A stretch of DNA of 63,708 nt, counting the filler, from Licmophora abbreviata (lineage: Eukaryota), in the NCBI GenBank assembly GCA_900291995.1. It is 13 parts of 13 records of this genome, joined end to end, with 100 filler letters (N's around TTAATTAATTAA, not from the genome) between each part and the next. Parts side by side here need not be neighbours in the genome. Positions count along the whole stretch, not along the records: positions 52,720 to 56,677 come from OLMU01001510.1; 12 more parts are not named here. One strand, 5' to 3'. The notes under the pieces are model-generated. The model did not search any database and was not told the DNA's origin. It worked only from the letters and a program-made list of their open reading frames with translations. The first letter of the stretch is position 1; each line of letters begins with the position of its first letter. The position numbers were made by a program, and so were the translations under genes. Positions 44,771 to 63,708 of the stretch are shown in pieces.

Positions 44771-44782
44771 GATTGACCTATC

Positions 44783-46534
44783 ATGGACTTGTGGAAGAAG
44801 ACCCTAAAGGGCAAGATGCGAAGCATCAGCAGCATGAGCACGGGTTCCACCGGTTCCAAAAACTACCACCGCTCCGCGTCCTTGGCTGGCGATGCCGAAA
44901 GTACCAGCGGCGGCTCGCAGGCGACAGAAACCTCCGTTGTCTCCCCCCTCCGTCAATTGCTCGATGCCGTCAATATGAGCATTCTGCCTCATGATTTGAG
45001 ACTCAGCAGTGTCATGCAAGCGGCGCAGTTTCTAGATCATAAGGAGCGAGAAACGCACGATCATGAGCTCAAGGAGGGGGCGGCCTTTATTCTCTTTCAG
45101 AAACTGGCCTTTGCAGTGTCTCTTGAACAGCAGCAGCAACAACAACATCAAATGATGCCAGCGGTATCGACCTTGACACACTCGTATACACATGAAATCA
45201 TGCTGCTGTGCTCGTGTTTGGAAATGGTTCATCGGGCTTCTCCGGACGCCATTGCGGCCACTTGGTATGATGTTGGAGAAGATATACTGGCACTGTTGGT
45301 GGATGTCTTGGAACGACCGTTCGTCGTCACTCCGAGTAGTACTTACGGTAGTGGTGGCATGATGAGCACTCGACCGACGTCCTCGACCACAACCATTCAT
45401 CGCGACACAAAGATTAGCGTCCAGAAAGTCACCAAGCTCCTCGCCATGTACTCGTTAGTACCCGAAGCCAAGTATCCTATTGTGGAGTGTCCTGGGATGC
45501 TGTCCGTCTTGGTCAAGATCCTCGACACGCGTCACTTGCACCGCGCTCGTACGACCACATCAACGCGCAAGATCATCATGACGGAGGCGGCCCGATTTCA
45601 TGCGCTTGCGACACTGACCAATCTGGCAGCGGCCGAAGAGAATCGCAAGGATATGTTGCTGACGCCGGGGTTGGTGGATACGATTGCAAGAGTGGTAAGT
45701 AACGAGTCGTCGGCGGTGGCGCGGCAGTGTAGTGCGTTGGCATTGATGAATTTGTCCAATGGGGACAAGCATCATGTACCGGAAATGGCAAGTGATTTAC
45801 TGTTACAAGTATTGGTGGAGTTGTTGGAAGATGAGCATGCCGAGACTCGTCGTAATGCAGCAGTGGCGCTGTACAATGTGGCATGCGCTGACGAGAACTC
45901 TGTACGAGTCGTCAAGTACAAGGAGGGTGTGTTGCTTGAAGCGTTGCTGGAGATTCTCTTTCACGAAGAGTCGTGTGCCAACGCTGCCGAAACGCTCTTC
46001 AACATGAGTTGCAGCGACAATCACGAAACGACCAATCACATGGCACATCATCCAGGCTTGTTGAACACTCTGTCTGACGTCGTCCAACCATCCACCAATG
46101 TCCCGATGGATGTCAAAATGTACTGTGCCGCGACATTGCGACGCATGGCCGAGCTGATTCATGCTCCCATGATATCGCAGGGTGCCTTGCTGAGTGCACT
46201 CGTCAAGGCATCCTCGTGGACCAGGACGGCTGACATTGCGGAAGCACTCGAGGCGCATGCGGATGTTGTGGAAAATCGCAAGCCCATGTCGGAACACGTC
46301 GGTATTCTCAATGCACTTGCACAAATGTGTGGTAGCGACAATGTCAAGATTAGCATGCCCGCAATTGGAACACTGGAACGATTGTCTAGAGAAGGTGAGG
46401 CTCGACAGCAGCTATCTTCTCACGAAGGTGTCATGATGGCCTTGACGCAAGCAAGTTACGATCAAGGCGAGAATGATGAACAAGGACAACTGGTGCAGTT
46501 GGCATTGAAGAATCTTGTGGAATCGATGGAGTAG
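44783..46534 (+). CDS. Armadillo-repeat protein (paralog B), intronless
   Basis: ALATLTNLAAAEENR, SALALMNLSNG, AAVALYNVACADEN, AAETLFNMSC, plus a polyQ tract. Confidence 0.88.
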   Translation: MDLWKKTLKGKMRSISSMSTGSTGSKNYHRSASLAGDAESTSGGSQATETSVVSPLRQLLDAVNMSILPHDLRLSSVMQAAQFLDHKERETHDHELKEGAAFILFQKLAFAVSLEQQQQQQHQMMPAVSTLTHSYTHEIMLLCSCLEMVHRASPDAIAATWYDVGEDILALLVDVLERPFVVTPSSTYGSGGMMSTRPTSSTTTIHRDTKISVQKVTKLLAMYSLVPEAKYPIVECPGMLSVLVKILDTRHLHRARTTTSTRKIIMTEAARFHALATLTNLAAAEENRKDMLLTPGLVDTIARVVSNESSAVARQCSALALMNLSNGDKHHVPEMASDLLLQVLVELLEDEHAETRRNAAVALYNVACADENSVRVVKYKEGVLLEALLEILFHEESCANAAETLFNMSCSDNHETTNHMAHHPGLLNTLSDVVQPSTNVPMDVKMYCAATLRRMAELIHAPMISQGALLSALVKASSWTRTADIAEALEAHADVVENRKPMSEHVGILNALAQMCGSDNVKISMPAIGTLERLSREGEARQQLSSHEGVMMALTQASYDQGENDEQGQLVQLALKNLVESME

Positions 46535-46713
46535 ATTGATGGTTGATACACGCGCGTAACTGGCCTCTAATTCTACACTGGTATGGAGAGCGCGGGCAAG
46601 AAGAGCGGATACAGGCAATCATTCGATTTTCGGACACAATTTGCACTATATAGTTGAAAAACTAGTTAGAACAGAGATAAGAGAATATCTCATGCAGCTT
46701 TCCCCGTTTCAAC

Positions 46714-47982
46714 TCAAGGCAGCATTGCTCCATGGACTCGATTCCATGCAAGATTGTCGAGTTCCTTTTCTTTACACCAATCCTCGAGCTGTGGTGATGC
46801 TGAAAACCCCTTCTTGTGGGAGCACACCGCGTGGACTATATCATTCAGTATCGTGAGCTGCTCCTCCGCTGCCGCAATAGAAGCACCAAAGATTGAGTTC
46901 AATTTTTGCGTAAGAACCTCATTGGCACGATTGTGGAGCTCTGTTTCGTGTGGACTCCATTTCCGCAGAAGGCGTTCCGCTTCTAATTCTCTTTGACTCT
47001 TCTCCTCCTCCTCCACTCGTACCGATCGCACTTTTTTTGACAAGAAGGTGACATCTAGTGGATGAAGACCGTACTCATACCAAAATCTTAGCATGGATTC
47101 CACCATTCGTTCCGTCACTAGCAGTAGAACGCGGCCCCCAGCGCCTGATTGGTCTAGTAGCATGTCATAGTTCTCTTGTGCTGATGCGTTCGGATTGAAT
47201 CCATTTCCCATGAGAAACATACTCTCACGATCGGCTTGACAGGCACTATGTCCCTGAAAAGTGTGCAGGAAATTATCCCGCGCCTCATCCGATAGCACGA
47301 AGTCGATCCACCTGGAACGATTTTGCGTGTATACAAGGCAGCCACAATTTTTATAGAATCCACAGGCACTGTGGAGACGTGACGCAGGGTCGCGGATGAT
47401 TGAGAGAACCCTACCATTCGCAGAAGGGACAACTTTTTCAAGTAGAATATTGTCAAAGGAAACGTGGTTGGCCCAAATGTCGTATGGTGCACTCCGAATG
47501 CTGGCGTTGGTGGTTCGCTGCCTCAGAATATCTTCACCACGTGGCTTAAAGTGGATCTGGTCGGCAACTGGAGTAACCAAGCTGTGACTGGTGGCGAGTG
47601 CGTGAAGGACAGATGTGATTGTGCTGGAACCTGTCTTGTGCGTCTTAATGAATAGAATACCACTGGAAGGCCTGTGGTTTCGAAATTCATCGCTAGTGAT
47701 AATCTTCCAGAGTGTTCGCTGGGCTTGTTCGACTGACATGGAAGCGTTCGACCATGCCCGAGCGAAGTCACTGAGAGCTGGTGAGAGGAATTCAATCTTC
47801 TTGTTCGTCGCGGGCGCATGCGCTTCAATCTTCTCTGGGGGCACCGGCGAAGTTTTCATTCTTTTCAAAGAGGACAGGCTTGGAGTGCCAGTGAAGTACA
47901 TGGCAATGATTGCAGCCAGTGTACCTAGGAGCAGCAGGGTTCCCAGACGAACAAGTCCGCTTCCCAGAGGCGGAAAGATCAT
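46714..47982 (-). CDS. Galactose-3-O-sulfotransferase-like Golgi sulfotransferase
   Basis: N-terminal TM, 5'-PSB motif LFIKTHKTGSSTIT, 3'-PB motif SIIRDP..R..S, LLVTERMVES. Confidence 0.88.
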   Translation of the reverse strand: MIFPPLGSGLVRLGTLLLLGTLAAIIAMYFTGTPSLSSLKRMKTSPVPPEKIEAHAPATNKKIEFLSPALSDFARAWSNASMSVEQAQRTLWKIITSDEFRNHRPSSGILFIKTHKTGSSTITSVLHALATSHSLVTPVADQIHFKPRGEDILRQRTTNASIRSAPYDIWANHVSFDNILLEKVVPSANGRVLSIIRDPASRLHSACGFYKNCGCLVYTQNRSRWIDFVLSDEARDNFLHTFQGHSACQADRESMFLMGNGFNPNASAQENYDMLLDQSGAGGRVLLLVTERMVESMLRFWYEYGLHPLDVTFLSKKVRSVRVEEEEKSQRELEAERLLRKWSPHETELHNRANEVLTQKLNSIFGASIAAAEEQLTILNDIVHAVCSHKKGFSASPQLEDWCKEKELDNLAWNRVHGAMLP

Positions 47983-48345
47983 TGTTGGGCTGACCGTTTC
48001 CACTCACAACTCGCAAACCTTCAGCTCACGGGTGACGCTCGGTGATCGACACTAATCAAACGATCTGCAAAGGCAAAGCAACAAACATACGGTTATGTTG
48101 AACTTGGTAGCAATTCTAGGCAGAAGTATCGATACAAGCTATCATACAAGTATCGATATGATACAAGCTACAACCACTTTCTGATGAGGTGTGACATACG
48201 GATGGACAGGCAGGACTGTAAAACTATGTCGCATTGCGACACACANNNNNNNNNNNNNNNNNNNNNNNNNNNNNNNNNNNNNNNNNNNNTTAATTAATTA
48301 ANNNNNNNNNNNNNNNNNNNNNNNNNNNNNNNNNNNNNNNNNNNN

Positions 48346-49597
48346 CAAGATAGTGGCCATCATACTGGTCGGTGGCTTAGGAATGGCCTCGTTCGCATCG
48401 GTGGTTCAGCAAGTTTCGACAGTATCGACTGGGCCATCATCATGGAGCACAAAACTTGATTCTCGGCAAACGCAGGTCTACATGTCCAGAGAAGAAGAAC
48501 CGGCCTTGCTGCAAGGATTGATACACATCATTCATACGCGGTTCATGCAACATCAGGCAGACTTGAAACACTTGTCAAGAGCCCGACTTGAACAGTTGAA
48601 ATCCGTCAGCTTGCCATCTATCCTTCATCAGAACTCGACCAACTTTCTCTGGATCATCAAGACAGATCCAGACTTGGACAAGAACATTCGCCAGGAGCTT
48701 GTCGATTTGTTGCGGCCCCACCCACGCTTCTTTCTCGTCGATTCGCTCGATAATTACCATGAATGGTTAACAAACAGCAACGCCGACCTCAACGGCTCGT
48801 GGCGAGGTGGAGAGGAAGGGGAGGAGTTGTTGACACAGCTTAGCCATGATTCGATACATACAGGCGATTGATCTCTACTGCAGCGTGCCTACGAGTTGAG
48901 AGAAGAGATTCCAGTGTTGGAAACTATGTTGGATGCAGACGATGGACTGCACGACGGATTCATTGATACCGTCCAAACGTACGCACAATCCGAGTTCGGG
49001 CATTCATCTCCTTCCCGAAAGCATTGGATGTACTGGTGTTCTCGAGATTATATAGCATGGCACACTGCGTTGAACGCTACCTCGAACGATCCCGAGGAAG
49101 GCCTTCTAAAGATCATCTCGCGGCCACTGTCGTCACGAGTTGCGTACTGCTCCACGGCAGGCTTGACGGTAGGGTACAACGTCGGGACTATGCAAGTTAC
49201 TGCTACTGCCCATAACCACTTGAAAAAGGCGACATGGTATGCCGATTGCAACCACGATCCCAATGTCGAATCTTCGTGTCTTCAAGTACTCAACGACCCT
49301 GCGCCTGGCGTAGTCCGATCTCGGACCATCACATCTGCCGGTATGAAGGATGTCGAACCGGTCGCTTTTCAGACCTACCGGTACAACGAAAGTGTTTTCA
49401 TGGACATACAAGCACAATTGTGGCGGACAATGGAAGAGACGTTTCACATTTCAAAATCCGCATGCGAAGAGACCAATCGGTACATTCGAATGAACCTACG
49501 TGAGATTGCCGATGACAATTTGAACGGGCAGTGCTCTTCTGGTCACAGCTGCAAAAGCGCTGCTCGGAACAAGCTGAACTATCTCGCCTCTGGCTAG
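48346..49597 (+). CDS. Putative rhamnosyltransferase-like (GT-A) protein, 5' truncated, with an in-frame TGA at 48869-48871
   Basis: HIIHTRFMQ, RL..L....LPS...Q...NFLWII.TD and LDADDGL. The two ORFs are in the same frame, separated by a single TGA. Confidence 0.7.
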
Positions 49598-50112
49598 TGC
49601 AGGATATAATAATCGATGCAGTGCCTGTGGTGTTAGCAGTGAGCGCACTCTCAATCGTTTCATGCGTGCGTCACTCCAGCAACGACAAACCCAGCCAACG
49701 CCCCTGCTGCAACAGTTCGTCAGCAGCTTGTTTCACGATAATTTTGTACATTCACAATAGGCTTACGCTTCCGCATAGATACAATATGAAGTACCTGGTA
49801 CGAGTATGAGGCGTTGCCTAACCTACCGGTACACGAGCCTGTCGAGGAGGTCTCGACTACGAGTAGGTACCTGGTATGAGGCAGTTTCGAGATTGATTCG
49901 AAACAAGCATCTCAGTCGAAGGAGTCGAGTCCAGTCACGAGCACGCCCCGCCGATGCGACGACGCCGTTGGGGGACTTTCGAGAGAAGATACCCTCTCGT
50001 TATCACACAATACACAATCACGCTGCTGTCGGTATCAGGGAACCCGCTTGTCTTCCTTTCTTCACACTTCAGTAGACAAGGTCGTCCCTACTCCCTACAT
50101 TTCATTCTAGCC

Positions 50113-50994
50113 ATGCCGTCTCGCTATTGCGCTGCCTGCGATCGCAATCTGACCAAAGATTGCTTCTCGAAGAACCAGTGGTCCAAAGGCATCGGCATCT
50201 CCCGTTGTTCCTCTTGTACCCACGGTACTACAAGTTCTCAGCAGCAGCACGATGTCACGCAGACTGCCCGTTGCAACAATGCGACTCGAGCGTCTTTTCA
50301 AAGTTATGATCTAGACAATCCCTTCGCCGCGGGTGCCTTTCGCTGGGTCGCTCGCGGCGAGTACACGCACGGCGAACGGGCCGGGCAAGAGTGTGTCTGC
50401 AAGTGGTTCAAGACGGGAGGCGTCATGGAAGCACACTTTTACGATACGGATCTCGAGGCATCCCAAGAAGCGGTGAGGCTCATTACAAAGTGGAATGAGA
50501 AGCACTTGATCAATCGAATGGTTCAGGTGAACCTCCCCGAAGTATGGACCTTCAATCACGATGCCCGGGCGAGCTGGGCTGGCAAGAAGGTCCTCCAGGA
50601 ACCCTTTATTGAGAATTACGAAAAATTCAACAGCAATACTGGCTGGGCCGACGACAGTCTCCCCTGGCCACGCGTCATGCAAGCGCTTTCGCACTTTACC
50701 TACCATACTTCCAATGGACAGATGCTCCTCTGCGACTTGCAGGGCGGAGTCTACAGCAACGGCATTGTCTTGACGGACCCCGTGGTCATGTCGACGGCCC
50801 GCGCCTACGGACCGACGGATCTGGGGAGTAACGGAATCTCCACCTTCTTTGCCCACCACGAGTGCAACGAGTACTGTCGTTCCGAATGGCGCACTCCTCG
50901 GAACCCGACTGCCTATTATCGCCGTACCGCCGGCACGACCATGGAGCACGTTCCGACGCGCCACAGCCGTGGGGCCATGTCCATGCACTACTGA
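50113..50994 (+). CDS. Alpha-kinase (MHCK/eEF2K family) with N-terminal CxxC..FS..Q..CxxC zinc finger
   Basis: PFAAGAFR, VCKWFK, EPFI..Y.KFNSNTGW, QALSHFTYH..G..LLCDLQG, LTDP, GPTDLG..GI..FF..H.CN..C. Confidence 0.93.
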   Translation: MPSRYCAACDRNLTKDCFSKNQWSKGIGISRCSSCTHGTTSSQQQHDVTQTARCNNATRASFQSYDLDNPFAAGAFRWVARGEYTHGERAGQECVCKWFKTGGVMEAHFYDTDLEASQEAVRLITKWNEKHLINRMVQVNLPEVWTFNHDARASWAGKKVLQEPFIENYEKFNSNTGWADDSLPWPRVMQALSHFTYHTSNGQMLLCDLQGGVYSNGIVLTDPVVMSTARAYGPTDLGSNGISTFFAHHECNEYCRSEWRTPRNPTAYYRRTAGTTMEHVPTRHSRGAMSMHY

Positions 50995-51434
50995 AGGAGG
51001 TTCGGAGAGTGTGGAACAAAGACACACTTCAACATTGGTTCATTGGATCATCATCATATTATTATAAGAATATAGCCGCAGAAGGAAAGTGAAGGCGAAA
51101 TGGGGACACTATTAGACTAGCTAGTAGAAGACAATNNNNNNNNNNNNNNNNNNNNNNNNNNNNNNNNNNNNNNNNNNNNTTAATTAATTAANNNNNNNNN
51201 NNNNNNNNNNNNNNNNNNNNNNNNNNNNNNNNNNNTTTACGAGTACTTCTATAAATATTACTGTTCGGCACGCAATTATTATGTATCCGGATTTGTACAT
51301 TTATAATTTAAAACCGGTGCTACAACGTGCCAAATTCAAAACCCAAGACTCACGCGAGACTGACCACTCGACTTGACTCACTCACTCACGCTCGTCGTCA
51401 CAACAGACACAACACACTGAAAACCACTGCCACC

Positions 51435-52619
51435 ATGGGATCTCCGTCTCCCGCGCGTCGCCGCCATCCTTTGCGTTCCAGTCCACGACGAAAGAGGACT
51501 TCGTTGCTGCGACAAACGACACTGTCGACCAATGTCGAAATCGTGAGGCCTCCCAGCAATCACAAGAAGCTCCGACAAGAAAACACAGAGAAATCACCGC
51601 TCGTTTTACGACGAGTACCTCCTCCTCTGCGTCGCACGAGTCCTCGGCGAGTACAAGTACAACCACGCCCAACCGCAGCCGCAGTGACAACCCTACCAGA
51701 CCTACTTCGAGTAGTAGCAGCTTAGGCCCAGTGTCTTTCCCTCGCTTCCTCGAAATGTGGAAAGCCGTCGAAGAAGACGACGGCTGGTGTACCGAAGAGT
51801 TTGAAGAAAGCAGCAGCTTTCGTCGCGCCAATTCTGCTATACACGAGAGTAAATCTCAAAGCAAGGCCCAGTACGGCCGCCTCCTCTTCAAGGCCACCAA
51901 CGTCCTCTTTGATGTCGTTATGAACTTGCAGTACTATCATCAGTTTTTGGATGTCGGGCACGGTGTGGGCAACACTGTACTGCAAGCGGCGTATACGAGA
52001 GGCTGTGAGGCCTTGGGGATTGAGCTTGTAGCGATACGACATGAACGGGCGCTTGTGTATCAAGAGAAAATGAAAGAAGTGGATCGATTGCACAATCGAG
52101 AGCGTGATGGGAAGGTGAGATTCATGCAATGGCTCCTTTCTTGCTTTAGGCGGGACTCGATTCTTACGATGCGATTCTTCTTTCTCTGTCTATCTCTTTC
52201 ATCATCATCCTTGCACCCTTTCTTGTGAATTCCTATTTCAGAATTTTTACGCCGGTTCCGTTCGCATGCGTCACGGCAGTCTCGAGGCCCCGGAGCATCG
52301 CGCCTTTCTCACGCAACACGTCGACGTGGCCTTTTGCAACAATTACGGAGAAGTCTTTGGAGAACGCTGTCGCAAACACAAGGAACTCTATACCATGGAC
52401 GATTACCTGGCGGGGAACTTTTGTCTCATGAAACCCAACAGCATTTTGGTAACGCTCTATCCACTGTCGTCGCTGGGATTTTCGAGGGAGGAAGCGAATG
52501 CAATGAGGGTGTCGCACGGATTGCCGGAATCGGAGACTGCGTCGTTTTATCGAGAAGAACACTTTGTCTTTGAGGGGACGGGATTGTTGAGCTGGACCAA
52601 TAACAGTTTCCGAGTCTAC
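51435..52619 (+). CDS. DOT1-like histone H3K79 methyltransferase, 3' truncated; intron at about 52114-52241; frameshift in the N-terminal low-complexity region
   Basis: QYGRLL, FLDVGHGVGNTVLQAAY..GC...GIEL, DVAFCNNY, MKPNSILVTL match DOT1 motifs. Confidence 0.8.
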
Positions 52620-53161
52620 NNNNNNNNNNNNNNNNNNNNNNNNNNNNNNNNNNNNNNNNNNNNTTAATTAATTAANNNNNNNNNNNNNNNNNNNNNNNNN
52701 NNNNNNNNNNNNNNNNNNNAAGTATACCAGGCTACAGCACAATACCTTTTTGTGTTGCAATCCGGAGTGTCCGAAAGCACAAGCGCAAACGCCGATTTTG
52801 TCCTACAAGGTTGATGACGAGGAAGACAAGGTGGTGGTAAATCAATGCGATTGTCGACTGCAGCGCAAGACGCGACGTACCAAGAATTACCAAGTTCCCT
52901 GTCGTACTGTGCATGTCGATTAGAGAATGTGTATGATATAGTTATACCACGTAGGGTGGGGTTGTCTCGGAAAGGTCAGCTGCTAAAGTGGCATCACTAT
53001 TTTACTGACTACTCGTGCAGAGAGTAGCAGATAAAGCTAAAACACGGAAAGAACTATATACTGTAGTTTCCGTTTCGGATACCTGCCGGATCGCGCAATC
53101 CATCACCGTGCATCCAAACAGAAACATACACACACATGTAACACGAGCCACTCTTCCCCCT

Positions 53162-56100
53162 CTAGTAGTAGCGACGCCAGTTGGGCACGCCACGAGGGAT
53201 CATCTCGGGCACTTCGATTCGCAAACGTTCCCACATGACAGCGTCTACATTGCGGTATACCATGGCTCCAATCTGCTGGGCACGTTCCGGCAAAGACCAA
53301 GCAAGGACTTTGAGGTACTTGATGCGCTGCTCTTGACGAGGGAGATTCGTCACGATGAAAGGAATAATGACTTCCCAGCGGTCGGCAGGAGTCAAGCGGA
53401 AGCACTCGCGCGAGATTTGTTTCTGCACTTCCAGAGGGAGAATCTTACGACCAATGCACTGCAAATGGCGCTCTTCGCCGAGGAGATGCTCCATGAAGTG
53501 ATCAAAGAAGGGGGGAAGCTCCTTCTTGAGCGAGTCAACGGCATTCTGACGCTGCGAATCGCCAGAGAGGTGTCCAAGAGCTTGTTGGCAGATTCGCGCC
53601 ATCCGGCCATCTTGACGTGGTCCTCCGCATGATCGTCGTTGAACTTCTTCGCGTGCTCGGGAAAGTAATCGTTGAAGACCTTGAAGATGACTTCGTCCTC
53701 ATGTTTTGCGTGCTCTTCGTGTGTCATGCAGAACCGATTGAAGTGCGCCGCAAAGAGTCCCATGTTCTGACTACCTTTCTCGGATCGGTCGGAGACGTCA
53801 AGGTTGTCCAGACAGATTCGAAGCGCCTCCATGTTGCCACGAAAGGCTTCGTGCGTCAACTTCATAAACGACAGCGGACCCCACTTGACTACACGAGAGA
53901 CGGCGTACGAAGAAAGAAAACGATTAGAACTCCGTCCCACCAAGCAACGCAAGCAGCAAGCCATACATACACCCGTCATATACTCACCCTCCGGAGTGAA
54001 GACTCCGCGGCGACGAACCACAGCCACAATCGTGTGCAAGAGTGCGCACATATTGGCAATGGAGGCGATGGCCAAGCCAGTGAACATGAGGGTACGACTG
54101 GCCGAGTAGCCATTCAGGGCGTAAAAGGCAGCCGCGCAAGCGGCCAAAGTGTCAAGCGCAAAGCACTCGGTCCAGTATGCCATGCCGAACTTATCGCGTC
54201 CAAAGAAAGCAATGTACGGAAGTGTCGCCCACGCCATAATGGCAAACAGGAAAAGGCCAATAAAGTAGTACTGCGAAAAGTCTGCTTCGCATTCGGCAAA
54301 TGTCGACAGATCGCCACGGAAACCAGAGTTCAAGCAGATACTGAGATTGGCCAGTCCAATGACGCACGGCGCCGCCAACCAAATGAATACCCCATGGCGC
54401 GTTCGATTATCACTGTTGTGTGTTGTGGCCGTCTTGAAGAAGGTAATGACAAAGAGCGTCACCCACATCAAGAAAGCAAACGAGTAAAAGAAGCGTGCCA
54501 CATAGTCCGTCGTGACCTGATCATCCTCAAACATGGGAATGATTGGAGCGACGAGTGCCGCCACCGCTAGTCCGACCGGCAAAATCATCCAGTACGTGTG
54601 GACGTGTTCCATCTCGAGACGCTTGCCGACCCACTCTCCCATTTTGGCAATCGTCAAGAAGGATTGCATGAGGCACCGATCCAAAAGAAGACACGCGCCA
54701 CCCACTGTGCGCCCGATCCGTTCGGGTCGTCCGCGATTTCGTCGTACAAGATCCACGCGTACACCATGAAGGTAATGGCAATCAATCCAAACGATGAAGA
54801 CTGTATCGGACTGTCCCACTCGTGCTTAATCTTGCGAGGATACATGGCACATCGAGCCATGTACAAGCACAGCATGGGAACAAAGACAACGGCACCAATC
54901 GTCGCAATGACTTGATACCACGCAGAGGGCACCACGTCCGAGCGCTCCTCTACTCCCGGAGTTTCCGCAAACAAAAGTCCCCAATCGGACGAGATTTTAA
55001 AGGCAGCCGCCAATCCCACGATACTGAGTGGCATTCCGAAGTAGGTAACTTGCATATTTCGGATCAAATGAAAGTCATCCTTGGTCCACTCGTCCGACTT
55101 TGGTTTGTAACGAAGCGCCGTCGCATCACTCGGGTGGGGCGCCACGACGCGAGGCTTTGGCTCGTCCGTTTTGGAATTGGCATAGTCCCACGTGTCTTCC
55201 ACTTCTTGTTTCGACGACGTGTAGATGCGATAGACACTATCCGGAAACATATTGTAATCAATGCCCATGGAAAAGAAAACGCAGCCCAAACAAAAGTCGA
55301 GGAAGGCTTCCAGTCCCGCCGCACAGGCCAACATGCCCATAATGACAGCACCGACAATATCATGTCCATCAAAGGAGGGTCCAAAGTAAAAGATGGTTCC
55401 GAGCATACTAAACAAGACACCGCAGAGGGCCGCAAACTGTTTGGGAGGTCCGGGACGAAACTGTGGGCGAAAGGGAGACACGGCGACGGTAGCAATCATG
55501 CCCAATGGAGAGACGCTGCTGCCTACCACCATGCGGAGCACAAAGTCGACCAACAAGCCTGCAGCCAAGTAGCGACCCCACAGTTTCGTGTAAAAGACGG
55601 CACTGAGCACGCTGAGAACAAAGACTTGGAGACCCGTCACGCGAACGACGTAGTTGTTGACGACGTTCTTCGTAATTGGTACAAGATGAAAGTGAGAGCA
55701 ATGTGAGGAGGCATGAATTCATTCTTCAAGTACACTCTCTTTATAGGCAGACAGACACTCCCTAGTATAGTACTTACGGGAAACCAAAGGAGGGGATGAC
55801 GCGCTTCGCCACGAGAGACCGGTGCCAGCTTGGCCGTTTCGAGCGAGGTCGTGTCCATAGTTTTGGACTTGACAATGAGATCAGCGACTTTCGGCTCGAG
55901 CTTATGCTTCTTATGCATGGCCTTGACATCGTCACAGCCTCCTAAGAATTCTTCCTTGACAAAGACCATGGGAACGGTCGAATGAACGGTCTTGGACTTG
56001 GCTGCTTTGAAGACAGCCCCTCCCTCACTGCCGTTCTTATCGACATTGTAGACCGTCACGGGAACGCCAATGTCGTTCGAGAGGAAGTCAATGACGTCTC

Positions 56101-56302
56101 GACAAAAGGGACAGGACGACTTGGCCACAACTGCGACGGCATGAGAGGAAAGGAAGCATTCCAGCTGTGCGTCTGGAGTGGATCCCTCCAACGCACCCTC
56201 GGTCAGGACCGTGACGAGGCTCGCGGTCTTGGTCTCGCCCGCGGCGACTTCCACGCCCGTTTCCACGTCCGTCTTGGGACCATCCTCATCGTTGGGAGGC
56301 AT
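53162..56302 (-). CDS. Multidomain fusion: glutaredoxin + DUF4395 + SLAC1/TDT anion channel + hemerythrin (HHE); about 977 aa, 3 exons, two 1-nt frameshifts
   Basis: Grx: KSSCPFC, TVPMVFV..EFLGGCDD. DUF4395: PGPPKQFA, GLEAFLDFCLGC. TDT: YFGMPLSIVGLA, YPRKIKHEW, WLAAP, YWTECFALD. Hemerythrin: THEAFR, HAKHEDEVIF, DHAEDH, EHLLGEE. Introns 55668-55777 and 53889-53987. Confidence 0.88.
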
Positions 56303-56631
56303 GCTTCCGAAGAAAGAATGAAACGGCAAAGAAGATACACGACTGTCAGCACAAAATGACCCTCCACTTTTGTGAGAGTGTCATTGAGTAAGATCGTCGA
56401 CTAGTCACGGATCTGAGAGGTTTCCGGAGAAATGGTTTCCCCGCAAGCCTCGTGGGTCCGCGACTAAACCAATACATTTCATGCTGTTTATAATTTATCA
56501 CTTCTTGAGTAAGCACATAATGATAAGTATTGTTTAATAATATATTTGAAACTGTATATAAGCAACACTCACATTGTCACGTCATTGCACTTATTAAAGT
56601 GTAAACATACCATGATACTGCTGACCTGTAA

Positions 56632-56823
56632 CCTCGTACAGAATGTATCATACCTGCCGACGTTTTGAGAGCCCGCCNNNNNNNNNNNNNNNNNNNNNNN
56701 NNNNNNNNNNNNNNNNNNNNNTTAATTAATTAANNNNNNNNNNNNNNNNNNNNNNNNNNNNNNNNNNNNNNNNNNNNCCTCGTACAGAATGTATCATACC
56801 TGCCGACGTTTTGAGAGCCCGCC
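56632..56823. repeat. 46-bp exact duplication flanking the linker (56632-56677 = 56778-56823); contig-end overlap
   Basis: cctcgtacagaatgtatcatacctgccgacgttttgagagcccgcc is present on both sides of the N-linker. Confidence 0.95.
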
Positions 56824-56947: not shown

Positions 56948-58509
56948 CTAGTCATCCAGCTTTCTCATAAATACATGATATCGCTTCATGCTGAAGAGGT
57001 GATCGTCTTCCATTTCCAGTGACAACGGATCGATTGGCCAGTTGTACTTGTGGATGGCAAAGTTCCACCACGTCTTTTCGACCCCGCCTGAAAAAGAGAA
57101 GAGTGTGTGAAGGCACGGTGTGAGCAAACCCGACGATGATCTAAGAGTATCCCAACAACATTCTCGGAAACTCGACTTCACAAGCTCCACTGCCAAGTAT
57201 CAGCACTTACCCCAATCGATGAGTTCAGAACACTTTGGCTGCGATACTTGTTCAATAATGATGGGCTTGCCGGGTTTCGCAATTCGAATCATTTCACCCA
57301 CCCACTTGGCGTAAAACTCCTTTTGGCGAATCTGTGCAATCTCAAGCAACTGTTGATCTCTCCAGTCGGTGCTGTTGCACAGTTCGTGGTAGTGACCGTG
57401 GTTGATATCCCACGGCGACTTGCTGGGTTGATGAAAGTTGAGCGGGTTTCCGAGGGGACTGTGTAGGAACGAGGGAAGCGAGAACGAAATTTAAGTGGTC
57501 AGTGCACTTAATCGACAATGCAATACCGCACTTCAATCAGCAGCGAAATAGATCACAAATATCGTACTGATACCAACACTCACAGAATGTACCCCGTCCA
57601 GACCAAATCAAAGAAAGCGGATGGAACAAAGTCCAAATTTGTCGAGTCTCCCATGCAAATGTTGCCTTTGGAGACGCCATCTGCCGGCAGGAAATGATCC
57701 AAGAGCTGATTGGCACGTTCCGTACTTGACTCCAAGTACTCATTGCCATAGACCGTCAGTTGCTGAGGTCCATTCATCTCTTGCAGGATCTCTAGAGTCA
57801 TGAGCGTGTTGAGACCCATCCCACAAGCACTTTCATAGATCTTATCGCCATCATGAACGTTCTTCGCCATGTATTTTGCCTTCCAGCTAGTCATTCCTTT
57901 CTTCATGTGCTTATAGGTCAGTTGCCAGTCATCGTAAGGCAACTCACGAAAGTTCTTTACGAATGAGTCGAAATCGAGCGTGTGTGCCTTCTCGGTCAAG
58001 TACGCCTTGTTGAAGCGCTCTTTGTCGTAGTTTGGAGCATCGTGAGCAAGTGGTTCTGCTGGGCAGTGGTAGATGCCTTCGAGGAGCTCAATCTCACTCT
58101 CAATTGTGTTCTCGAGCACTTTTATCTCGTTTTCGATTCGGCCTTCGATGGTCTCAAACTCACTTTCGATTTCGTTTTCAAACTCCACAACAGTTTCATT
58201 CGACCTTCCAAAGACTGCTAGCAAGAAGCCGATGCTTATCAACGTTGCTACCCCCATACTCACGATCCGTATTGAGCTGTTGTAAGAAAAAGCATTCTTT
58301 GTTCTGTGGTCACGAGAAGGAAGAGAACGCCGTCCGCCACCTCGTTCTAGTGCCACCAAGTCTTTTGACGAACCCTTCTCTTTGATCGTCATGGTGGCAC
58401 TTCCTCCACCACCTCTTCTCTGGGACACCATCATGGTTCTGTATCGTCTTCGACTAGAAGTGCGGCGGTAATGTGAGTGACCGGTTGCATCGGTGCACAT
58501 CGTCATCAT
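56948..58509 (-). CDS. Type II membrane class I SAM-dependent methyltransferase-like protein, about 3 exons
   Basis: TM helix, then IYESACGMGLN (motif I-like), VYGNEY, GDSTNLDFVPS..FDLVWTGYI. Downstream exons include EMIRIAKPGKPIIIEQV and RYHVFMRK. Confidence 0.75.
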
Positions 58510-58780
58510 GGGTTCGCGGGCATCGGCAATCGAATTCCTCCAGTCACGAATGGCTTATGATCTGTTGTCCAATCACGAGCGTCGTCACGTCTGATGCGCG
58601 CGCCAGTTCGGTTCAAACAAGCTTTGGCGCGCCTTTTTCGGTGTGGTGTGGTCATTTCTTCGGAGCGTCATTTCCGAACGAAACCAGCTAAAGCAACAGG
58701 AAGTGTGTATACGTGTAGCTGCAGAACTGTGCTAGTATAATCGATCATGGCTACCATGAATGCCTGTATTTTTTCATTGA

Positions 58781-60223
58781 CTACACTCGACTGGCAGCTC
58801 GACTCAGATCGAACGTGACTCCGGTACTCACCACTTTCAAGAAGGGATACGTTCGACACATGCGAGAAATGATCTGAAGCTGCTGCTGGACGCTTACTAC
58901 ACCCCGTTCGCCCGCGACCTCTGCCAAATCCTCCGACAAGTCTCGCAAATTCTGAGGGGAGAAGCGCCTTCGGTCATTCCATAGAATGGTACGACACTCG
59001 TGAATGTGCAGCATCAACATGCCAAGGTCGTCCGATGTAAGAACTGATGGACCAAGAGAATCTTCCAAAGGAGCATTCAGAGTTTCTGATGTCGACGAGG
59101 GTTCCCAGTGCAGTGGTGGGGGTGCCGAAGGCGGGTGGTCTCGCATCACCAATAATCGCTCAATGTCGAGAATCACATGCCGAAATGACGCAAACGTCTC
59201 TTCTCGGCTCTTTCCAAGTCTCAGCAATGCATAATACAAGAAGCGGGAGAGAAGTGTCTTGCGGTGTAAATGAGCAACACCGCTGGTGTGACGGCCGCAA
59301 GATTGAGATTGATTTCGTTCGATGTCATCATTTCGTCCATTGCATACAAGGCATTCATCATTTCCTTCTTGATGAACTGCATTTCGATGAAGCTCATGCG
59401 AATCACACTGTTGATTTCGTAAATCGTCTTCATGTCTTCCTCCTTCTTTTGCTCGATCAACGACATGTCCATCGAGTGGGCGCGAGCGATGCGTTCGACC
59501 TCCTCCATATCGGGAAATCTTTCGTCGAGCCAGCTGCGAATCATCTTCTTCAACGTTTCGATCGCGTCGACTCGAGCTTTGTGGTCGCTAATGGTATCTC
59601 GATTCTTCCTTGCGAGCAGCTCGGAGAAACTAGAGATTGGGTTCCAATCCCATGCGAGCACTGGTGTCAGTGGAGCATACAAGTAGACAGAAGCAGCTTC
59701 CTAGGTGCACGGGGTTCCTACTCACATGGCAGACAGTGGTCCGGCAAAGTGCTCATGGTAAAACGACTGAACCCTCTCAACTGCCAGCTTGGCTAGCTCA
59801 ACGCCACCGCCACTTCGAAGGAGCTTGTACAAGACATAGACCACAACCGAAGATCCCATGACAATCTTGTACCAGCCTCGTCGTATCTTTGACAGCGCCT
59901 TCAGCTTGTCAAGACGCCGCCGGCGCTGCACCTCCATGATGACTTCCATGGAATTCAGCAACTCCGATACTTCCGTTGCCATCATGGGAAGATTTGAAAT
60001 CACAATGTTACCTTCGGGTAGCGCCGTTGTCACGTCTTTGGCGTCATTGACGGTCTCATTCGCTCTTTCCGCGCTTTCGTCGAAACCTTCAAAATTCACA
60101 CGCTTGTGTGGGTCAGCATACTGTTGTCCGCGCGTACAGAGAGTCTTTGCCTCTTCATTCGATTTTTCGTCTTCTTCCAATCCTTCCGCATCTTCTGTTA
60201 TTCGGTCGGAATCATTGCCGAGC
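58781..60223 (-). CDS. NCA2: NCA2/DGS1-like (nuclear control of ATP synthase 2) protein, 5' truncated; intron at about 59629-59725; frameshift near 59250
   Basis: FY.EH..GPL.AI..EL, IRMSFIEMQFIKKEM..AL..MDEMM.SNEIN....A..PA, DLGML, DL.EDL.E. Confidence 0.8.
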
Positions 60224-60323
60224 NNNNNNNNNNNNNNNNNNNNNNNNNNNNNNNNNNNNNNNNNNNNTTAATTAATTAANNNNNNNNNNNNNNNNNNNNN
60301 NNNNNNNNNNNNNNNNNNNNNNN

Positions 60324-61964
60324 TGATCCGCACCCCCTGCCACGGTCGTGCCATCTGCCGACAGGGCCACAGAAATACCAAAGCCATCCTCCTCACCCTT
60401 GCCAGGAATGGCTCTTGCCACTGGCGTCCATGCGCCATTCATCATCTGAAACACTCGCACGTGTCCAGAATTCACCCCATTGCCATCGTTCCATCGCGCA
60501 CCCAAGGCAAGGATACTGCCGTCGGACGACAAGGAGATCGACTCACGAAAGTAATCAAAATTACTCGCCCCCACAAGAGTCTGGCCCAACTGGACCCAAC
60601 TCGATTCGTTCCGCTGAAACACGCGCACGTGTTGGGATATATCTCCATTTTCGATCAGTAATGAGCCCACCGCAAGGATATTACCGTCGGATGACAAGGA
60701 GACCGACTCCCCAAACCTATCGCTTACATTCTTTCCGACAAGAGTCTGACCCAGCTGAACCCAACTCGATCCATCATGCTGGAACACTCGCACGTGTCCA
60801 GATCCAACTCCGTTGTCGCCGTTGGACTCCGCACCCACGGCAAGGATAATGCCATCGGACGACAAGGAGATCGAGCGACCAAATTCGTCACCAGCGTTCT
60901 TGCCAACAAGAGTCTGGCCAAACTGCACCCAACTCAATCCATCATGTTGGAACACTCGCACGTGTCCGGAACGAGATCCATTGTCGTTGTTCCAACTTGC
61001 ACCGACAGCAAGGATCCTAACGTCGGACGACAAGGACACCGACTCCCCAAAGTAATCACCTAGATTCTCACCAACAATAGTCTGGCCCAGCTGGATCCAA
61101 CTCGATTCGTTCCACTGGAAGATTTGCACGTTTCCTGAAGCAGATCCATTGTCGTCGTTGAATGCTGCACCCACGGCAAGGATACTGCCATCGAATGACA
61201 AGGAAAACGAGTAACCAAAGTAATCACCAGCATTCTCCCCGACAAGAGTCTGGCCCAACTGGACCCAGCTCGATCTGTTTTGCTGGAACACACGCACGTG
61301 TCCAGAAGAAACTCCATTGTCGTCGTTGTATCTTGCGCCGGCGGCAAGGGTACTGCCGTCAGACGAAATAGCAATGGACCCGCCGAAGCGATCCTCATCG
61401 CCGGTTCCGACAATGTCTTGTCCGAGCTGTGACCATTCCGACACGAATGATGATGGCGCGGGCGTTGGATTGTTCGTTGAGACGGGCGCCAAAGTTAGGC
61501 TGTCACTTAACACCCCTGACTTGTCAGTGGAGTTGCTGCCCGTCAGTGCGACGGTCGCACCCACAATGGCTGCTACCACCAGGAGAACGATTACAGTCAG
61601 CAGGATTATATTTCTCTTCGAACACAATGAACCATGTTTGGGAGGAGTTGGCTCCCCAACGTTGAGAATCTCAGCTTGCGTATCGTCGACAAGTTCCGCA
61701 GAAAGAACGGGAGGCGACGACGGCGGTGGAACGACAGGAATGTCTTGCGAATGATCTTCATGCGTCACTGTTGAGTCGGCCAACGCGCTTTCTTCGTCAG
61801 GACTATAGTCAATTCCATGTACAAAGACAGCACCCGGTTGCGGCCCTGCAGCAGGAGGAGGAGCGCTTGTCGCAGCAGGAGAACTGCCGACGCTAGTGTC
61901 GGCGTGAGGCGGGGCCTCTTCCATCACCGTTCTGGGTGTCGGGTGTGGAATGGGCGGAGCCAGA
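60324..61964 (-). CDS. FG-GAP/integrin-like beta-propeller repeat type II membrane protein (paralog 1), truncated at both ends
   Basis: TM IILLTVIVLLVVAAIVGATVAL followed by about seven ~55-aa repeats WxQLGQTLVG..GDxFGxSxSLSSDG.ILAVGA..NDxNG..SGHVRVF. Confidence 0.9.
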
Positions 61965-62064
61965 NNNNNNNNNNNNNNNNNNNNNNNNNNNNNNNNNNNN
62001 NNNNNNNNTTAATTAATTAANNNNNNNNNNNNNNNNNNNNNNNNNNNNNNNNNNNNNNNNNNNN

Positions 62065-63708
62065 AATTGACACTTGCGTCCAAGCCCCATCCAACACTTG
62101 GAATACTCGCACGTGTCCGGAATCAAAGCCATTGTCGTTGCTCAATCTTGCACCCACGACAAGGATACTGTCGGACGACAAGGACACCGAGGTACCGAAC
62201 TCATCACCAGCAATCTCCCCGACAATAGTCTGGCCCAGCTGAACCCAACTCGATCTATTCCTCCGGAATGCTCGCACATGTCCAGAACCAATTCCATTGT
62301 CGTTGTTGAGCGCTGCACCCACGGCAAGGATACTGCCGTCGGACGACAAGGACACCGACTGACCAAACCCATCACCAGCATTCTCCCCGGCAAGAGTCTG
62401 GCCCAACTGGACCCAACTCGATGCATTCCGCTCAAACACTCGCACGTGTCCGGACTCAATTCCATTGTCGTCGTTGAATATTGCACCAGCAGCGAGGATA
62501 CGACCATCGGACGACAAGGAGACCGACGCACCAAACAGATCAACAGCTCTCCTCCCGACAAGAGTCTGGCCCAACTGAACCCACATCGATCCATTCCACT
62601 GGAACACGCGCACGTGTCCGGAACTAGTTCCATTGTCGTCGTTCCATACTGCAGCTGCGGCAAGGACACTGCCGTCGGACGACAAGGATATCGAGGAACC
62701 AAACTCATCACCAGCACTCTCGCCGACAAGAGTCTGGCCCAACTGCACCCAACTCGATCCGTTCCACTGAAACACTCGCACGTGCCCAGAGTTACTTCCA
62801 CGGTCGTCGTTTTCAGGTGCACCCACGGCAAGGATGCTTCCATCGGAGGACATAGAGACCGAGTAACCAAAGATATCGCCAGGATTCTCCCCGCGAAGAA
62901 GACTCTGCTGGCCCTGATTGATCCAACTCGTTCCATTCCACTGAAACACTCGAACGTGTCCGGAATCAAGGCCAGTGTCATCGTTTTCAGGGGCACCCAC
63001 GGCAAGTATAGTGCCGTTTGACGAAATGGCTGTGGCCCAACCATACCCATCACCATCGCCGGTTCCAAAAATGTCCTGCCCGAGCTGTGACCACACACCC
63101 AAGAGTGGTGCGCTGCTGGGTGCTGCTGATGGCGACATAGTTGGATCGCTCTTGATGTCGTCACCCGACCCCACTTGCTCTGAAGTTAAAGGGTCAGACG
63201 AGCTACGGCCCGTAAGCGCAACAACCGCACCCACAACGCCTCCCGCAAGCAACAACAGCAACCCGATCGCAATCAGCACCCCATTCCGCTTTGAGAAGAC
63301 GGCGGAAGAGCCTCTCTCGGGAGGTTCTACGACCTCGGCAATTTGAGCTTGCGTAGGGTCGACGAGTTGCGCAGACAACATGGGAGGCGACGGAGGTACT
63401 GGTGTGACAATGTCTTGCGAATGTTCTTGATTCGTCACTGTTGTATGGTCGGCCAGTGTGTTTCTTCATCCATAGCATTGACAGGGTCGACGGGATGCGT
63501 CCCCGCCCGTATCGTAGCAGCATTAGGAGTCGCTGATGCTGGATTGCCAGAGTAATTGGGCGTGGATACTTGTTCCGCCGCTGTCTCGGGCAGAGCGTGT
63601 GGAATGGGCGAAGCCAGACTGAGTTTCCCCGATTTCGTGTTGATCTTGTTGTCGTTTACCTGTTCCGCCGCTGTTTCGGACAGAGCGTGTGGAATGGGCG
63701 GAGCCAGG
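62065..63708 (-). CDS. FG-GAP/integrin-like beta-propeller repeat type II membrane protein (paralog 2), truncated at both ends; frameshift near 63462
   Basis: Same repeat as paralog 1, TM VLIAIGLLLLLAGGVVGAVVAL, shared HSQD..P.PP.LSA.LVD juxtamembrane motif. The frame continues to the window end after one A is added. Confidence 0.9.
63571..63708 (-). repeat. 90-bp-period coding repeat (LA(P/S)PIPHAL(P/S)ETAAEQ core) in the N-terminus of FG-GAP paralog 2
   Basis: 63571-63618 and 63661-63708 are near-identical. A partial copy at 61943-61964 encodes LAPPIPH in paralog 1. Confidence 0.85.

Follow-up and report, generated by a model that had tools for sequence, protein, structure and literature searches.

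The diatom Licmophora abbreviata (draft genome assembly GCA_900291995.1) encodes, on the minus strand at 53162–56302 of the 63,708-nt stretch of DNA that we analyzed (the window), a single protein of ~977 amino acids. From the N-terminus, it has a glutaredoxin (Grx) domain, a DUF4395 membrane domain, a TDT domain (SLAC1/TehA-like), an HHE hemerythrin-like domain, and a tail of ~100 amino acids. Read as is, this region is four overlapping open reading frames (ORFs) in different frames (P0001 to P0004, from the stop-to-stop list). The original prediction, made from this DNA alone, had joined these pieces into one protein of ~977 amino acids with the four domains in this order. Our results agree: a script that reads through the locus, with an X at both frame breaks, yields 977 amino acids; the homologues have a single ORF; and the Pfam profiles for the four domains score above their cut-offs on the ORF pieces. 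As judged from the comparisons below, the locus is one diatom gene with three exons and is intact in nature.

Table. Features of the fusion gene and of the window (positions are those of the window)
Feature	Position	Strand	Description
Whole gene	53162..56302	-	ATG at 56300-56302, TAG at 53162-53164; 3 exons, 2 introns, two 1-nt gaps
Exon 1	55778..56302	-	175 codons; acidic N-terminus, glutaredoxin domain, linker
Intron 1	55668..55777	-	110 nt, GT..AG
Exon 2	53988..55667	-	DUF4395, linker, TDT domain; contains break 1
Intron 2	53889..53987	-	99 nt, GT..AG, in frame, stop-free
Exon 3	53162..53888	-	Hemerythrin-like domain and conserved tail to RRYY-stop; contains break 2
P0001	55778-56302	-	Pfam: Glutaredoxin, 38.8 bits (cut-off 22.9)
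P0002	54672-55667	-	Pfam: DUF4395, 81.9 bits (cut-off 24.5); SLAC1, profile 1-111, 44.7 bits (cut-off 27.9)
P0003	53395-54672	-	Pfam: SLAC1, profile 125-328, 43.2 bits (cut-off 27.9); Hemerythrin, profile 3-93 of 127, 25.5 bits (cut-off 25.3)
P0004	53165-53698	-	Pfam: no match of its own
Frame break 1	54672..54673	-	One base short at a CC run; coding strand GGTGCC^TCATG; reads WIGA/LMQSF
Frame break 2	53561..53563	-	One base short at a CC run of the + strand (coding GG); reads DTSL./DSQRQ
Glutaredoxin domain	55946..56137	-	PF00462, residues 56-119; CPFC at 56102-56113; TVP and GGCDD present
DUF4395 membrane module	55266..55661	-	PF14340; C-L-G-C at 55281-55292; PGPPKQF loop; AlphaFold2 pLDDT 95
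TDT/SLAC1/TehA domain	54046..55058	-	PF03595, spread over two frames
HHE hemerythrin-like domain	53471..53874	-	Motifs KLTHEA, HEEHAKHED, NDDHAEDH, and HFMEHLLGEE present
Conserved C-terminal tail	53165..53470	-	~100 amino acids; five short helices in the model of a homologue; no Pfam match
Contig carrying the gene	52720..56677		3,958 nt; the gene is alone on it; a 100-nt artificial spacer on either side
Spacers, 100 nt each	8410, 19153, 23043, 30584, 42555, 43844, 48246, 51136, 52620, 56678, 60224, 61965		

To check the gene model, we aligned seven intact homologues with the ORF pieces. Both termini of the protein (MPPNDEDG... and ...RRYY, the latter followed by the stop codon) agree with the family. 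Removing intron 1 joins ...LLWFP to NVVNN..., and the same junction (FWFPN) is present in all seven homologues; this intron is spanned only by DNA-like contigs. Intron 2, if translated, would be an insert of 33 residues, and because this insert is missing from all seven homologues, we consider the segment to be an intron as well. Both introns had been predicted at these positions, and the alignment confirms them. A contig from run X3, which was presumed to be an RNA run, spans intron 2 except for its last 3 nt; its end is a Nextera adapter, and it is therefore uninformative about splicing. No splice joints were seen in the contigs, and among 11 listed runs, no RNA run with this locus turned up (the best share of words was 0.23). 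(An mRNA that retained intron 2 would gain a Cys-rich insert between the pore and hemerythrin domains.)

The changes of frame run through two of the domains. The two parts of the SLAC1 profile lie on either side of break 1, and the match to the hemerythrin profile is cut at position 93 of 127 by break 2. The locus therefore has one SLAC1 domain and one hemerythrin domain, each split by a change of frame. The assembly as read does have four ORFs in different frames, and if these were taken at face value, they would be several separate small genes. But the SLAC1 and hemerythrin profiles are cut by the breaks, and each homologue, also where a complete transcript is known, has one ORF of 950–1030 amino acids, so we view this possibility as extremely improbable.

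Compared to the seven homologues, no residue is missing at either break, so each break is a gap of one nucleotide. These are the two missing bases that had been predicted. Both breaks fall in two-base homopolymers. For break 2, a metagenome contig from run X1 (271 nt, depth 2, 0 mismatches) has an additional C behind position 53561 of the + strand. This C extends the CC run at 53562–53563, so that the coding strand has GGG instead of GG, which encodes Leu-Gly-Asp and restores the frame. It is the only indel that was reported over the covered parts, among the contigs of four public runs. The original prediction had put the missing base ~2 nt away (GCG(G)AT); the effect on the frame is the same, but the position differs from that in the contig. 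For break 1, none of the contigs of the four public runs covers the site. A scan of metagenome contigs for the exact pattern, allowing for 1–3 bases at the break, had 0 matches, and a protein-seeded scan of these contigs found three loci with 51–56% identity, none of which is near-identical. Since no contig covers break 1 and neither scan found a near-identical copy, our reading of it is based on homology. The three loci (L081, L082, and L083, with identity measured against P0002) are genomic loci of relatives; L081 is a 14.5-kb metagenome contig that includes flanking sequence.

Are the breaks real? The copy in Licmophora abbreviata could be a recently inactivated pseudogene, with two real deletions of 1 nt and no full-length protein. 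There are two frame breaks within 3 kb of assembly; no read contradicts break 1; and the intact form of break 2 comes from one metagenome contig of low depth, which might represent another strain. However, conservation is undiminished past each break, the start codon, the splice sites, and the stop codon are intact, the rest of the gene has neither additional stops nor additional indels, and the protein ends in RYY, as do the other members of the family. Also, the draft assembly is fragmented, both gaps look like undercalls of homopolymers, and the one contig that independently covers a break restores the reading frame without a mismatch. So, we consider a pseudogene to be improbable. The window itself consists of draft contigs of 1.2–11.9 kb that are joined by 12 identical spacers of 100 nt (44 N, then TTAATTAATTAA, then 44 N, with stop codons in all six frames). 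Because the window is a chain of such short contigs, it is likely that both breaks are assembly errors, namely single-base undercalls. For annotation, the broken ORFs would be artefacts of the assembly, and the locus should be modelled as one gene.

The fusion is not a singular find: our searches revealed a widespread family of eukaryotic proteins. Searching longer proteins with P0002 gave 42 relatives, at identities of 58% or less. In precomputed annotations, all 42 of these have PF03595 (SLAC1), 39 have PF14340 (DUF4395), and 17 have all four domains. When we scanned five distant relatives directly (a diatom transcript, a Porphyridium protein, and an ichthyosporean entry among them), all four domains were present in all five. 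We also used HMMER to compare the DUF4395 piece alone to 1.84 billion cluster representatives, which gave 528 hits with E ≤ 1e-3 (156 of them with E ≤ 1e-10). Among the matches listed, there are 40 representatives of at least 750 amino acids, and in all 40, DUF4395 is followed by SLAC1. Seventeen have the entire set of Grx, DUF4395, SLAC1, and hemerythrin; 9 have Grx, DUF4395, and SLAC1; 7 have DUF4395, SLAC1, and hemerythrin; 5 have DUF4395 and SLAC1 only; and in 2, Grx is replaced by an Rdx domain (SelW-like, PF10262). The shorter hits (300–749 amino acids) are pieces of the same domain order in 48 of 48 cases, with Grx in 33 and SLAC1 in 13. A word-indexed search with the DUF4395 piece matched only fragments of this same eukaryotic family.

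The fusion order is found in diatoms, Porphyridium, ichthyosporeans, one choanoflagellate, and one cercozoan; named members are from Epithemia, Helicotheca, Seminavis, Fistulifera, Porphyridium, Pirum gemmata, Papus ankaliazontas, and Salpingoeca macrocollata. Several relatives are MMETSP transcripts that are marked "type:complete", so these relatives make a single mRNA. In a tree from FastTree with 57 rows (those with at least 900 amino acids among the 42 relatives, plus 26 representatives; shorter rows were omitted), the Licmophora protein lies within a clade of 17 rows, with pennate diatoms, whose SH-like support is 100. Public databases already list members of the family, with automatically assigned names such as "TehA-like permease/glutaredoxin/hemerythrin-like". 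As the original prediction had it, the architecture apparently lacks a functional description: in the full-text literature, with subscription journals and supplements outside its scope, we found no description of a Grx-DUF4395-TDT-hemerythrin fusion. As far as can be told, then, the architecture is recorded in databases yet apparently undescribed, and it is not a new kind of channel.

There are also a few departures from the usual order. P0167 and P0180 (Salpingoeca macrocollata) have the N-terminal Rdx domain (SelW/SelT/SelH-like) instead of glutaredoxin. P0126 has two glutaredoxin domains. In P0082, which is among the hits of 300–749 amino acids, Grx-DUF4395 is preceded by an additional CRAL_TRIO domain.

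For the structure of the protein, we relied on a full-length AlphaFold2 model of an intact diatom homologue, P0008, which was built with 35 aligned relatives (mean pLDDT 86.9, pTM 0.84). In this model, a thioredoxin-fold domain comes first. It is followed by DUF4395, with four long and two short helices; by a linker helix and a hairpin; by the TDT domain; and by the hemerythrin-like domain, with four long helices and then five short ones. Comparing the P0008 model to PDB with Foldseek ranked SLAH1 first (9m7s_C and 9m7u_A), followed by SLAC1 and SLAH3, then TehA (TMt of 0.80–0.86), and then class I glutaredoxins. Together with the gene model and the family, this shows that the Licmophora gene encodes a membrane protein with 14 helices (4 + 10) from a conserved eukaryotic family. 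The short motifs that had been pointed out in its sequence (CPFC, TVP, GGCDD, CLGC, and the His and Glu ligands for two irons) are all present.

The glutaredoxin domain resembles the class I (CPYC-type) dithiol glutaredoxins, such as yeast Grx1 and plant GrxC5/S12. It exceeds the Pfam cut-off (38.8 vs. 22.9 bits), it has the CPFC active site and the TVP and GGCDD motifs of the glutathione site, and the thioredoxin fold of the P0008 model matches structures of class I glutaredoxins with TMt of up to 0.90 (profile E = 4e-27). When we searched the sequences in PDB with a single homologue, only glutaredoxins matched; TehA and SLAC1 were reached with profiles only. The homologue's domain scores below the cut-off for the NCBIfam equivalog GRX_euk (73.8 vs. 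87.25 bits). The fusion's Grx differs from the class I proteins in that it is covalently tethered to a membrane protein, and also in its active site. The first Cys is kept in 33 of 33 aligned rows across the family, whereas the second Cys is gone, with Ser or Thr in its place, in 5 of the 33. Therefore, a monothiol (glutathionylation) mechanism fits the family, and an obligatory dithiol relay does not. (We also predicted a complex of the Grx (25–135) and DUF4395 (160–330) of P0008. The score was 0.00, without controls or alignments, and we do not count it either way.)

The DUF4395 domain scores 81.9 bits against its Pfam profile (cut-off 24.5) and has the family's C-x-G-C motif (within FCLGC in the Licmophora protein) and PGPPKxFA loop. 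The C-x-G-C motif is conserved in 42 of the 42 rows that cover the site, and in the P0008 model, it lies right behind the fourth long helix. In an alignment of 57 DUF4395 rows from eukaryotes and bacteria, K76, A79, C126, and C129 are invariant, and conservation is 90% or higher at R45, S53, Q77, and E120. We compared the model of this domain (pLDDT 95) to 48,161 PDB representatives and found only generic four-helix bundles (the P1 domain of CheA, and FliS). The best Z score was 9.0, which is below the noise level of ~13 that is stated for helical bundles in this search. A relationship to the membrane thiol oxidoreductases of the DsbD, CcdA, VKOR, or DsbB type can be judged only from these generic bundles; in Pfam, the domain matches PF14340 only.

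The original prediction had coupled the CxxC of Grx to that of the membrane domain in a thiol relay. In its fullest form, DUF4395 and Grx would be a trans-membrane thiol-disulfide relay, akin to DsbD or CcdA, that carries electrons from cytosolic glutathione to the far side of the membrane, and the channel and the hemerythrin would be mechanistically separate from it. Both Cys motifs are indeed present, and the invariant Cys pair is in a membrane domain that adjoins a thioredoxin-fold domain. But a strict dithiol relay is weakened by the family members whose Grx has a single active-site Cys. Furthermore, DUF4395 has a single Cys pair, which is located where helix 4 ends and not in the core of the bilayer; by helix count, this pair is on the same side as Grx, and a second pair toward the far side is missing. 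In the fold search, DUF4395 had no relative above noise, and the linkage of DUF4395 to TDT in every long eukaryotic representative argues that the two domains function jointly. We regard a relay across the membrane as very unlikely.

The TDT domain is related to the SLAC1/SLAH family of plant S-type channels and to bacterial TehA (PF03595). Each half scores well above the Pfam cut-off, as does the domain of an intact homologue (93.2 bits). The model has ten TDT helices between residues 370 and 720 (of P0008, that is, not of the Licmophora protein itself), and this 10-helix fold matches the structures 9m7s, 7en0, and 3m71 with TMt of 0.80–0.86. A profile of 17 relatives that lack Grx matched SLAH3 and TehA in PDB (E = 4.4e-41 and 4.9e-41, respectively). 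In a profile alignment, Phe262 of TehA aligns with an invariant Phe of the family, which is the F of YWTECFALD in the Licmophora protein. (We located Phe262 by counting from residue 208 and cross-checked it with the entry that is changed at the adjoining position, G263P.) This Phe is F529 in one alignment of the family and is at least 90% conserved in another. In TehA and SLAC1, this residue (F262 and F450, respectively) reportedly occludes the pore. Like these channels, the fusion protein has N- and C-terminal regulatory regions, putatively cytosolic, on either side of the pore domain. SLAC1 is gated by phosphorylation of its disordered termini; in the fusion, by contrast, folded redox and di-iron modules take the place of such termini, and the DUF4395 bundle lies in the membrane ahead of the pore. 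Also, sequence identity to the TDT members with solved structures is only 15–20%. The scores are far below the cut-offs for the NCBIfam TehA equivalog (NF008032; 26.4 vs. 342 bits) and for the NCBIfam tdt subfamily (TIGR00816; 25.5–39.9 vs. 237.25 bits), so we consider it to be a distant member of TDT and not an orthologue of TehA.

The C-terminal domain narrowly exceeds the cut-off for PF01814 on the broken piece (25.5 vs. 25.3 bits), and in an intact homologue, the score is 29.1 bits with profile positions 3–125 aligned. HHE hemerythrin-like domains are sensors in proteins such as FBXL5, BTS/HRZ, DcrH, and RIC/YtfE. As in these sensors, the domain has four long helices with invariant H / HxxxE / H / HxxxE ligands. 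In P0008 numbering, the di-iron ligands are H741, H788, E792, H815, H863, E867, and E868, all of which are invariant in 35 rows, and the motifs that match this set are all present in the Licmophora protein. In contrast to those sensors, this domain is joined to a channel, not to an E3 ligase or a chemoreceptor, and it is followed by the conserved helical tail, which has no match in Pfam. The tail is among the best-conserved parts of the family, with the pattern PIGRK...LPRxxQRxxYLKVL.W..PERAQQIGA.VYRNVDAVMWERL...RYY. By language-model features, the C-terminal 240 amino acids resemble stand-alone hemerythrin-like proteins of 222–298 amino acids (scores of 0.91–0.92).

We propose that the fusion protein is an anion channel of the SLAC1/TehA type that is controlled from the cytosol by thiol redox state and by iron or oxygen; from these sequence comparisons and models, we would put the probability of this at roughly 55%. 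Because the number of helices is even and there is no signal peptide, Grx, the C-x-G-C motif of DUF4395, and hemerythrin, along with both termini, are all predicted to face the cytosol. The TDT domain would pass an anion through a pore that is gated by a Phe, as in SLAC1 and TehA. The Cys pair of DUF4395 would act at the edge of the membrane as a switch, by forming a disulfide or by being glutathionylated, and the tethered Grx would set this switch from the glutathione pool, with the monothiol route being sufficient in some lineages. The di-iron hemerythrin domain would report the status of O2, NO, or iron. Together, the Cys switch and the hemerythrin would open or close the pore in response to the redox state and the iron or oxygen state of the cytosol. 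Candidate anions include nitrate or chloride, sulfite, and selenite or tellurite. The redox- or O2-gated anion transport that the original prediction put forward is a reasonable hypothesis.

Several points weigh against our proposal. The conserved Phe is not proof of channel behavior, because TDT also includes carriers such as Mae1 and Ssu1. The predicted topology is deduced from the helix count only. Among the 40 long representatives, 12 have no Grx or Rdx and 15 have no hemerythrin (at E ≤ 0.001); some of the representatives that are short of a domain may be truncated models, and others may be real variants. The replacement of the second Cys in some of the glutaredoxins belongs here too. As for the gene itself, the single transcript was seen only in relatives, no independent read backs the repair of break 1, and the support for break 2 is one contig with a depth of 2.

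To our knowledge, nothing is known about the function of DUF4395. The linkage in the fusions is fixed, with DUF4395 between an upstream thioredoxin-fold domain and a downstream TDT domain. Since Rdx replaces Grx in two lineages, this argues that what DUF4395 may need is a thioredoxin-fold partner with CxxC or CxxU. We also looked at bacteria (Chloroflexota and Actinomycetota), where DUF4395 proteins are short (150–180 amino acids), stand alone, and share the motifs of the eukaryotic domain: a four-helix module with the invariant K, A, and C-x-G-C and with the PGPPK(Q/R)FA loop. Unlike the eukaryotic fusions, 5 of the 9 stand-alone forms that we aligned have a second CxxC ~20 residues downstream (P0171, P0179, P0192, P0194, and P0201; P0195 has the C-x-G-C only). 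The four Cys of these bacterial forms might serve as a metal site or as a relay.

To sample bacterial loci, we scanned one genome per species with a pattern that was designed from four closely related sequences, so that only loci with the PGPPKRF pattern are represented. The domain is widespread in bacteria: at least 591 bacterial DUF4395 loci were confirmed, and the best 80 are all from Chloroflexota and Actinomycetota. For 79 of these 80 loci, a crude rule (the longest ORF on each side, within 400 nt) gave 141 neighboring proteins; at the remaining locus, L072, no ORF matched. The original prediction had placed bacterial DUF4395 genes often near thioredoxin and sulfurtransferase genes; this sample does not support that, as none of the 141 immediate neighbors is a thioredoxin or a rhodanese. 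Nor did we see a shared redox partner among the neighbors at these Chloroflexota and Actinomycetota loci. They do include one DSBA/Rv2466c-like protein, one TauE protein, two proteins similar to low-molecular-weight phosphatases or ArsC, and one ArsR-type helix-turn-helix regulator.

These results bear on another explanation, in which the protein is a machine for processing a substrate and the hemerythrin only modulates it. The TDT pore would move an oxyanion of a chalcogen or a pnictogen (selenite, tellurite, sulfite, or arsenate), the C-x-G-C of DUF4395 would capture or reduce it at the cytosolic mouth as a Cys-bound intermediate, and Grx and glutathione would recycle the Cys. The TDT relatives that have names are, by family name, tellurite-resistance and sulfite-efflux proteins. 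Other conserved residues (K, Q, E, R, and S) surround the invariant Cys pair, which is reminiscent of a catalytic site. The replacement of Grx by Rdx (SelW/SelT-like) in two lineages would suit this explanation, and glutaredoxins that manage with one Cys are expected if the chemistry depends on glutathione. And bacterial DUF4395, with its second CxxC, stands alone, so that a channel is not required for the module to function. However, the oxyanions named here are candidates only; the few neighbors in bacteria that relate to S, Se, or As do not form a consistent set; and the hemerythrin is conserved as strongly as the rest of the protein, which suits a core regulatory role. Substrate processing seems unlikely to us, though it deserves consideration.

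A specific combination of these ideas, a gateway for chalcogen oxyanions, is a long shot. Selenite or tellurite would pass through the SLAC1-like pore and be trapped by the Cys pair of DUF4395 as an adduct of the selenotrisulfide type; Grx (or, in some lineages, the SelW-like Rdx) would hand it to the glutathione pool; and the di-iron hemerythrin would shut the path under oxidizing or iron-poor conditions. If true, this would be the long-sought route for the entry and handling of selenite in marine protists that depend on selenoproteins, and the first function for DUF4395.

Phosphorylation is the known means of gating for SLAC1/TehA channels. If the fusion protein is instead a redox- and iron- or oxygen-controlled anion channel, as we propose, then its built-in thiol-redox and di-iron sensors would be a new coupling of anion flux to the redox, oxygen, or iron state of the cell. 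Diatoms and red algae would have this coupling in common with choanoflagellates and ichthyosporeans, and these variables are relevant to marine phytoplankton. It would also give a first functional handle on DUF4395, as the fixed linkage of Grx or Rdx to DUF4395 and TDT suggests both a partner and a site of action.

Two smaller observations concern the bacterial proteins. The neighbors that recur at DUF4395 loci are specific to lineages: Ppx-GppA (10 cases), DUF3604 (6), amidase (4), thiamine pyrophosphate enzymes (4), and LGT (3). And P0194 has a weak match of 30 residues to APS-kinase (E = 4.5e-5).

Because the window is an artificial chain of contigs, the genes that flank the fusion gene across the spacers are not its true neighbors. 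We had considered the nearby genes for ARM, Gal-3-O-sulfotransferase, alpha-kinase, DOT1, and FG-GAP proteins as gene context and rejected them, as the spacers put them on other contigs. Those contigs, at 44780–52225 and 57583–63465, have ORFs with ARM repeats, a Gal-3-O-sulfotransferase, a putative rhamnosyl transferase, an alpha-kinase, a DOT1-like methyltransferase, and FG-GAP repeats, which are ordinary eukaryotic genes.

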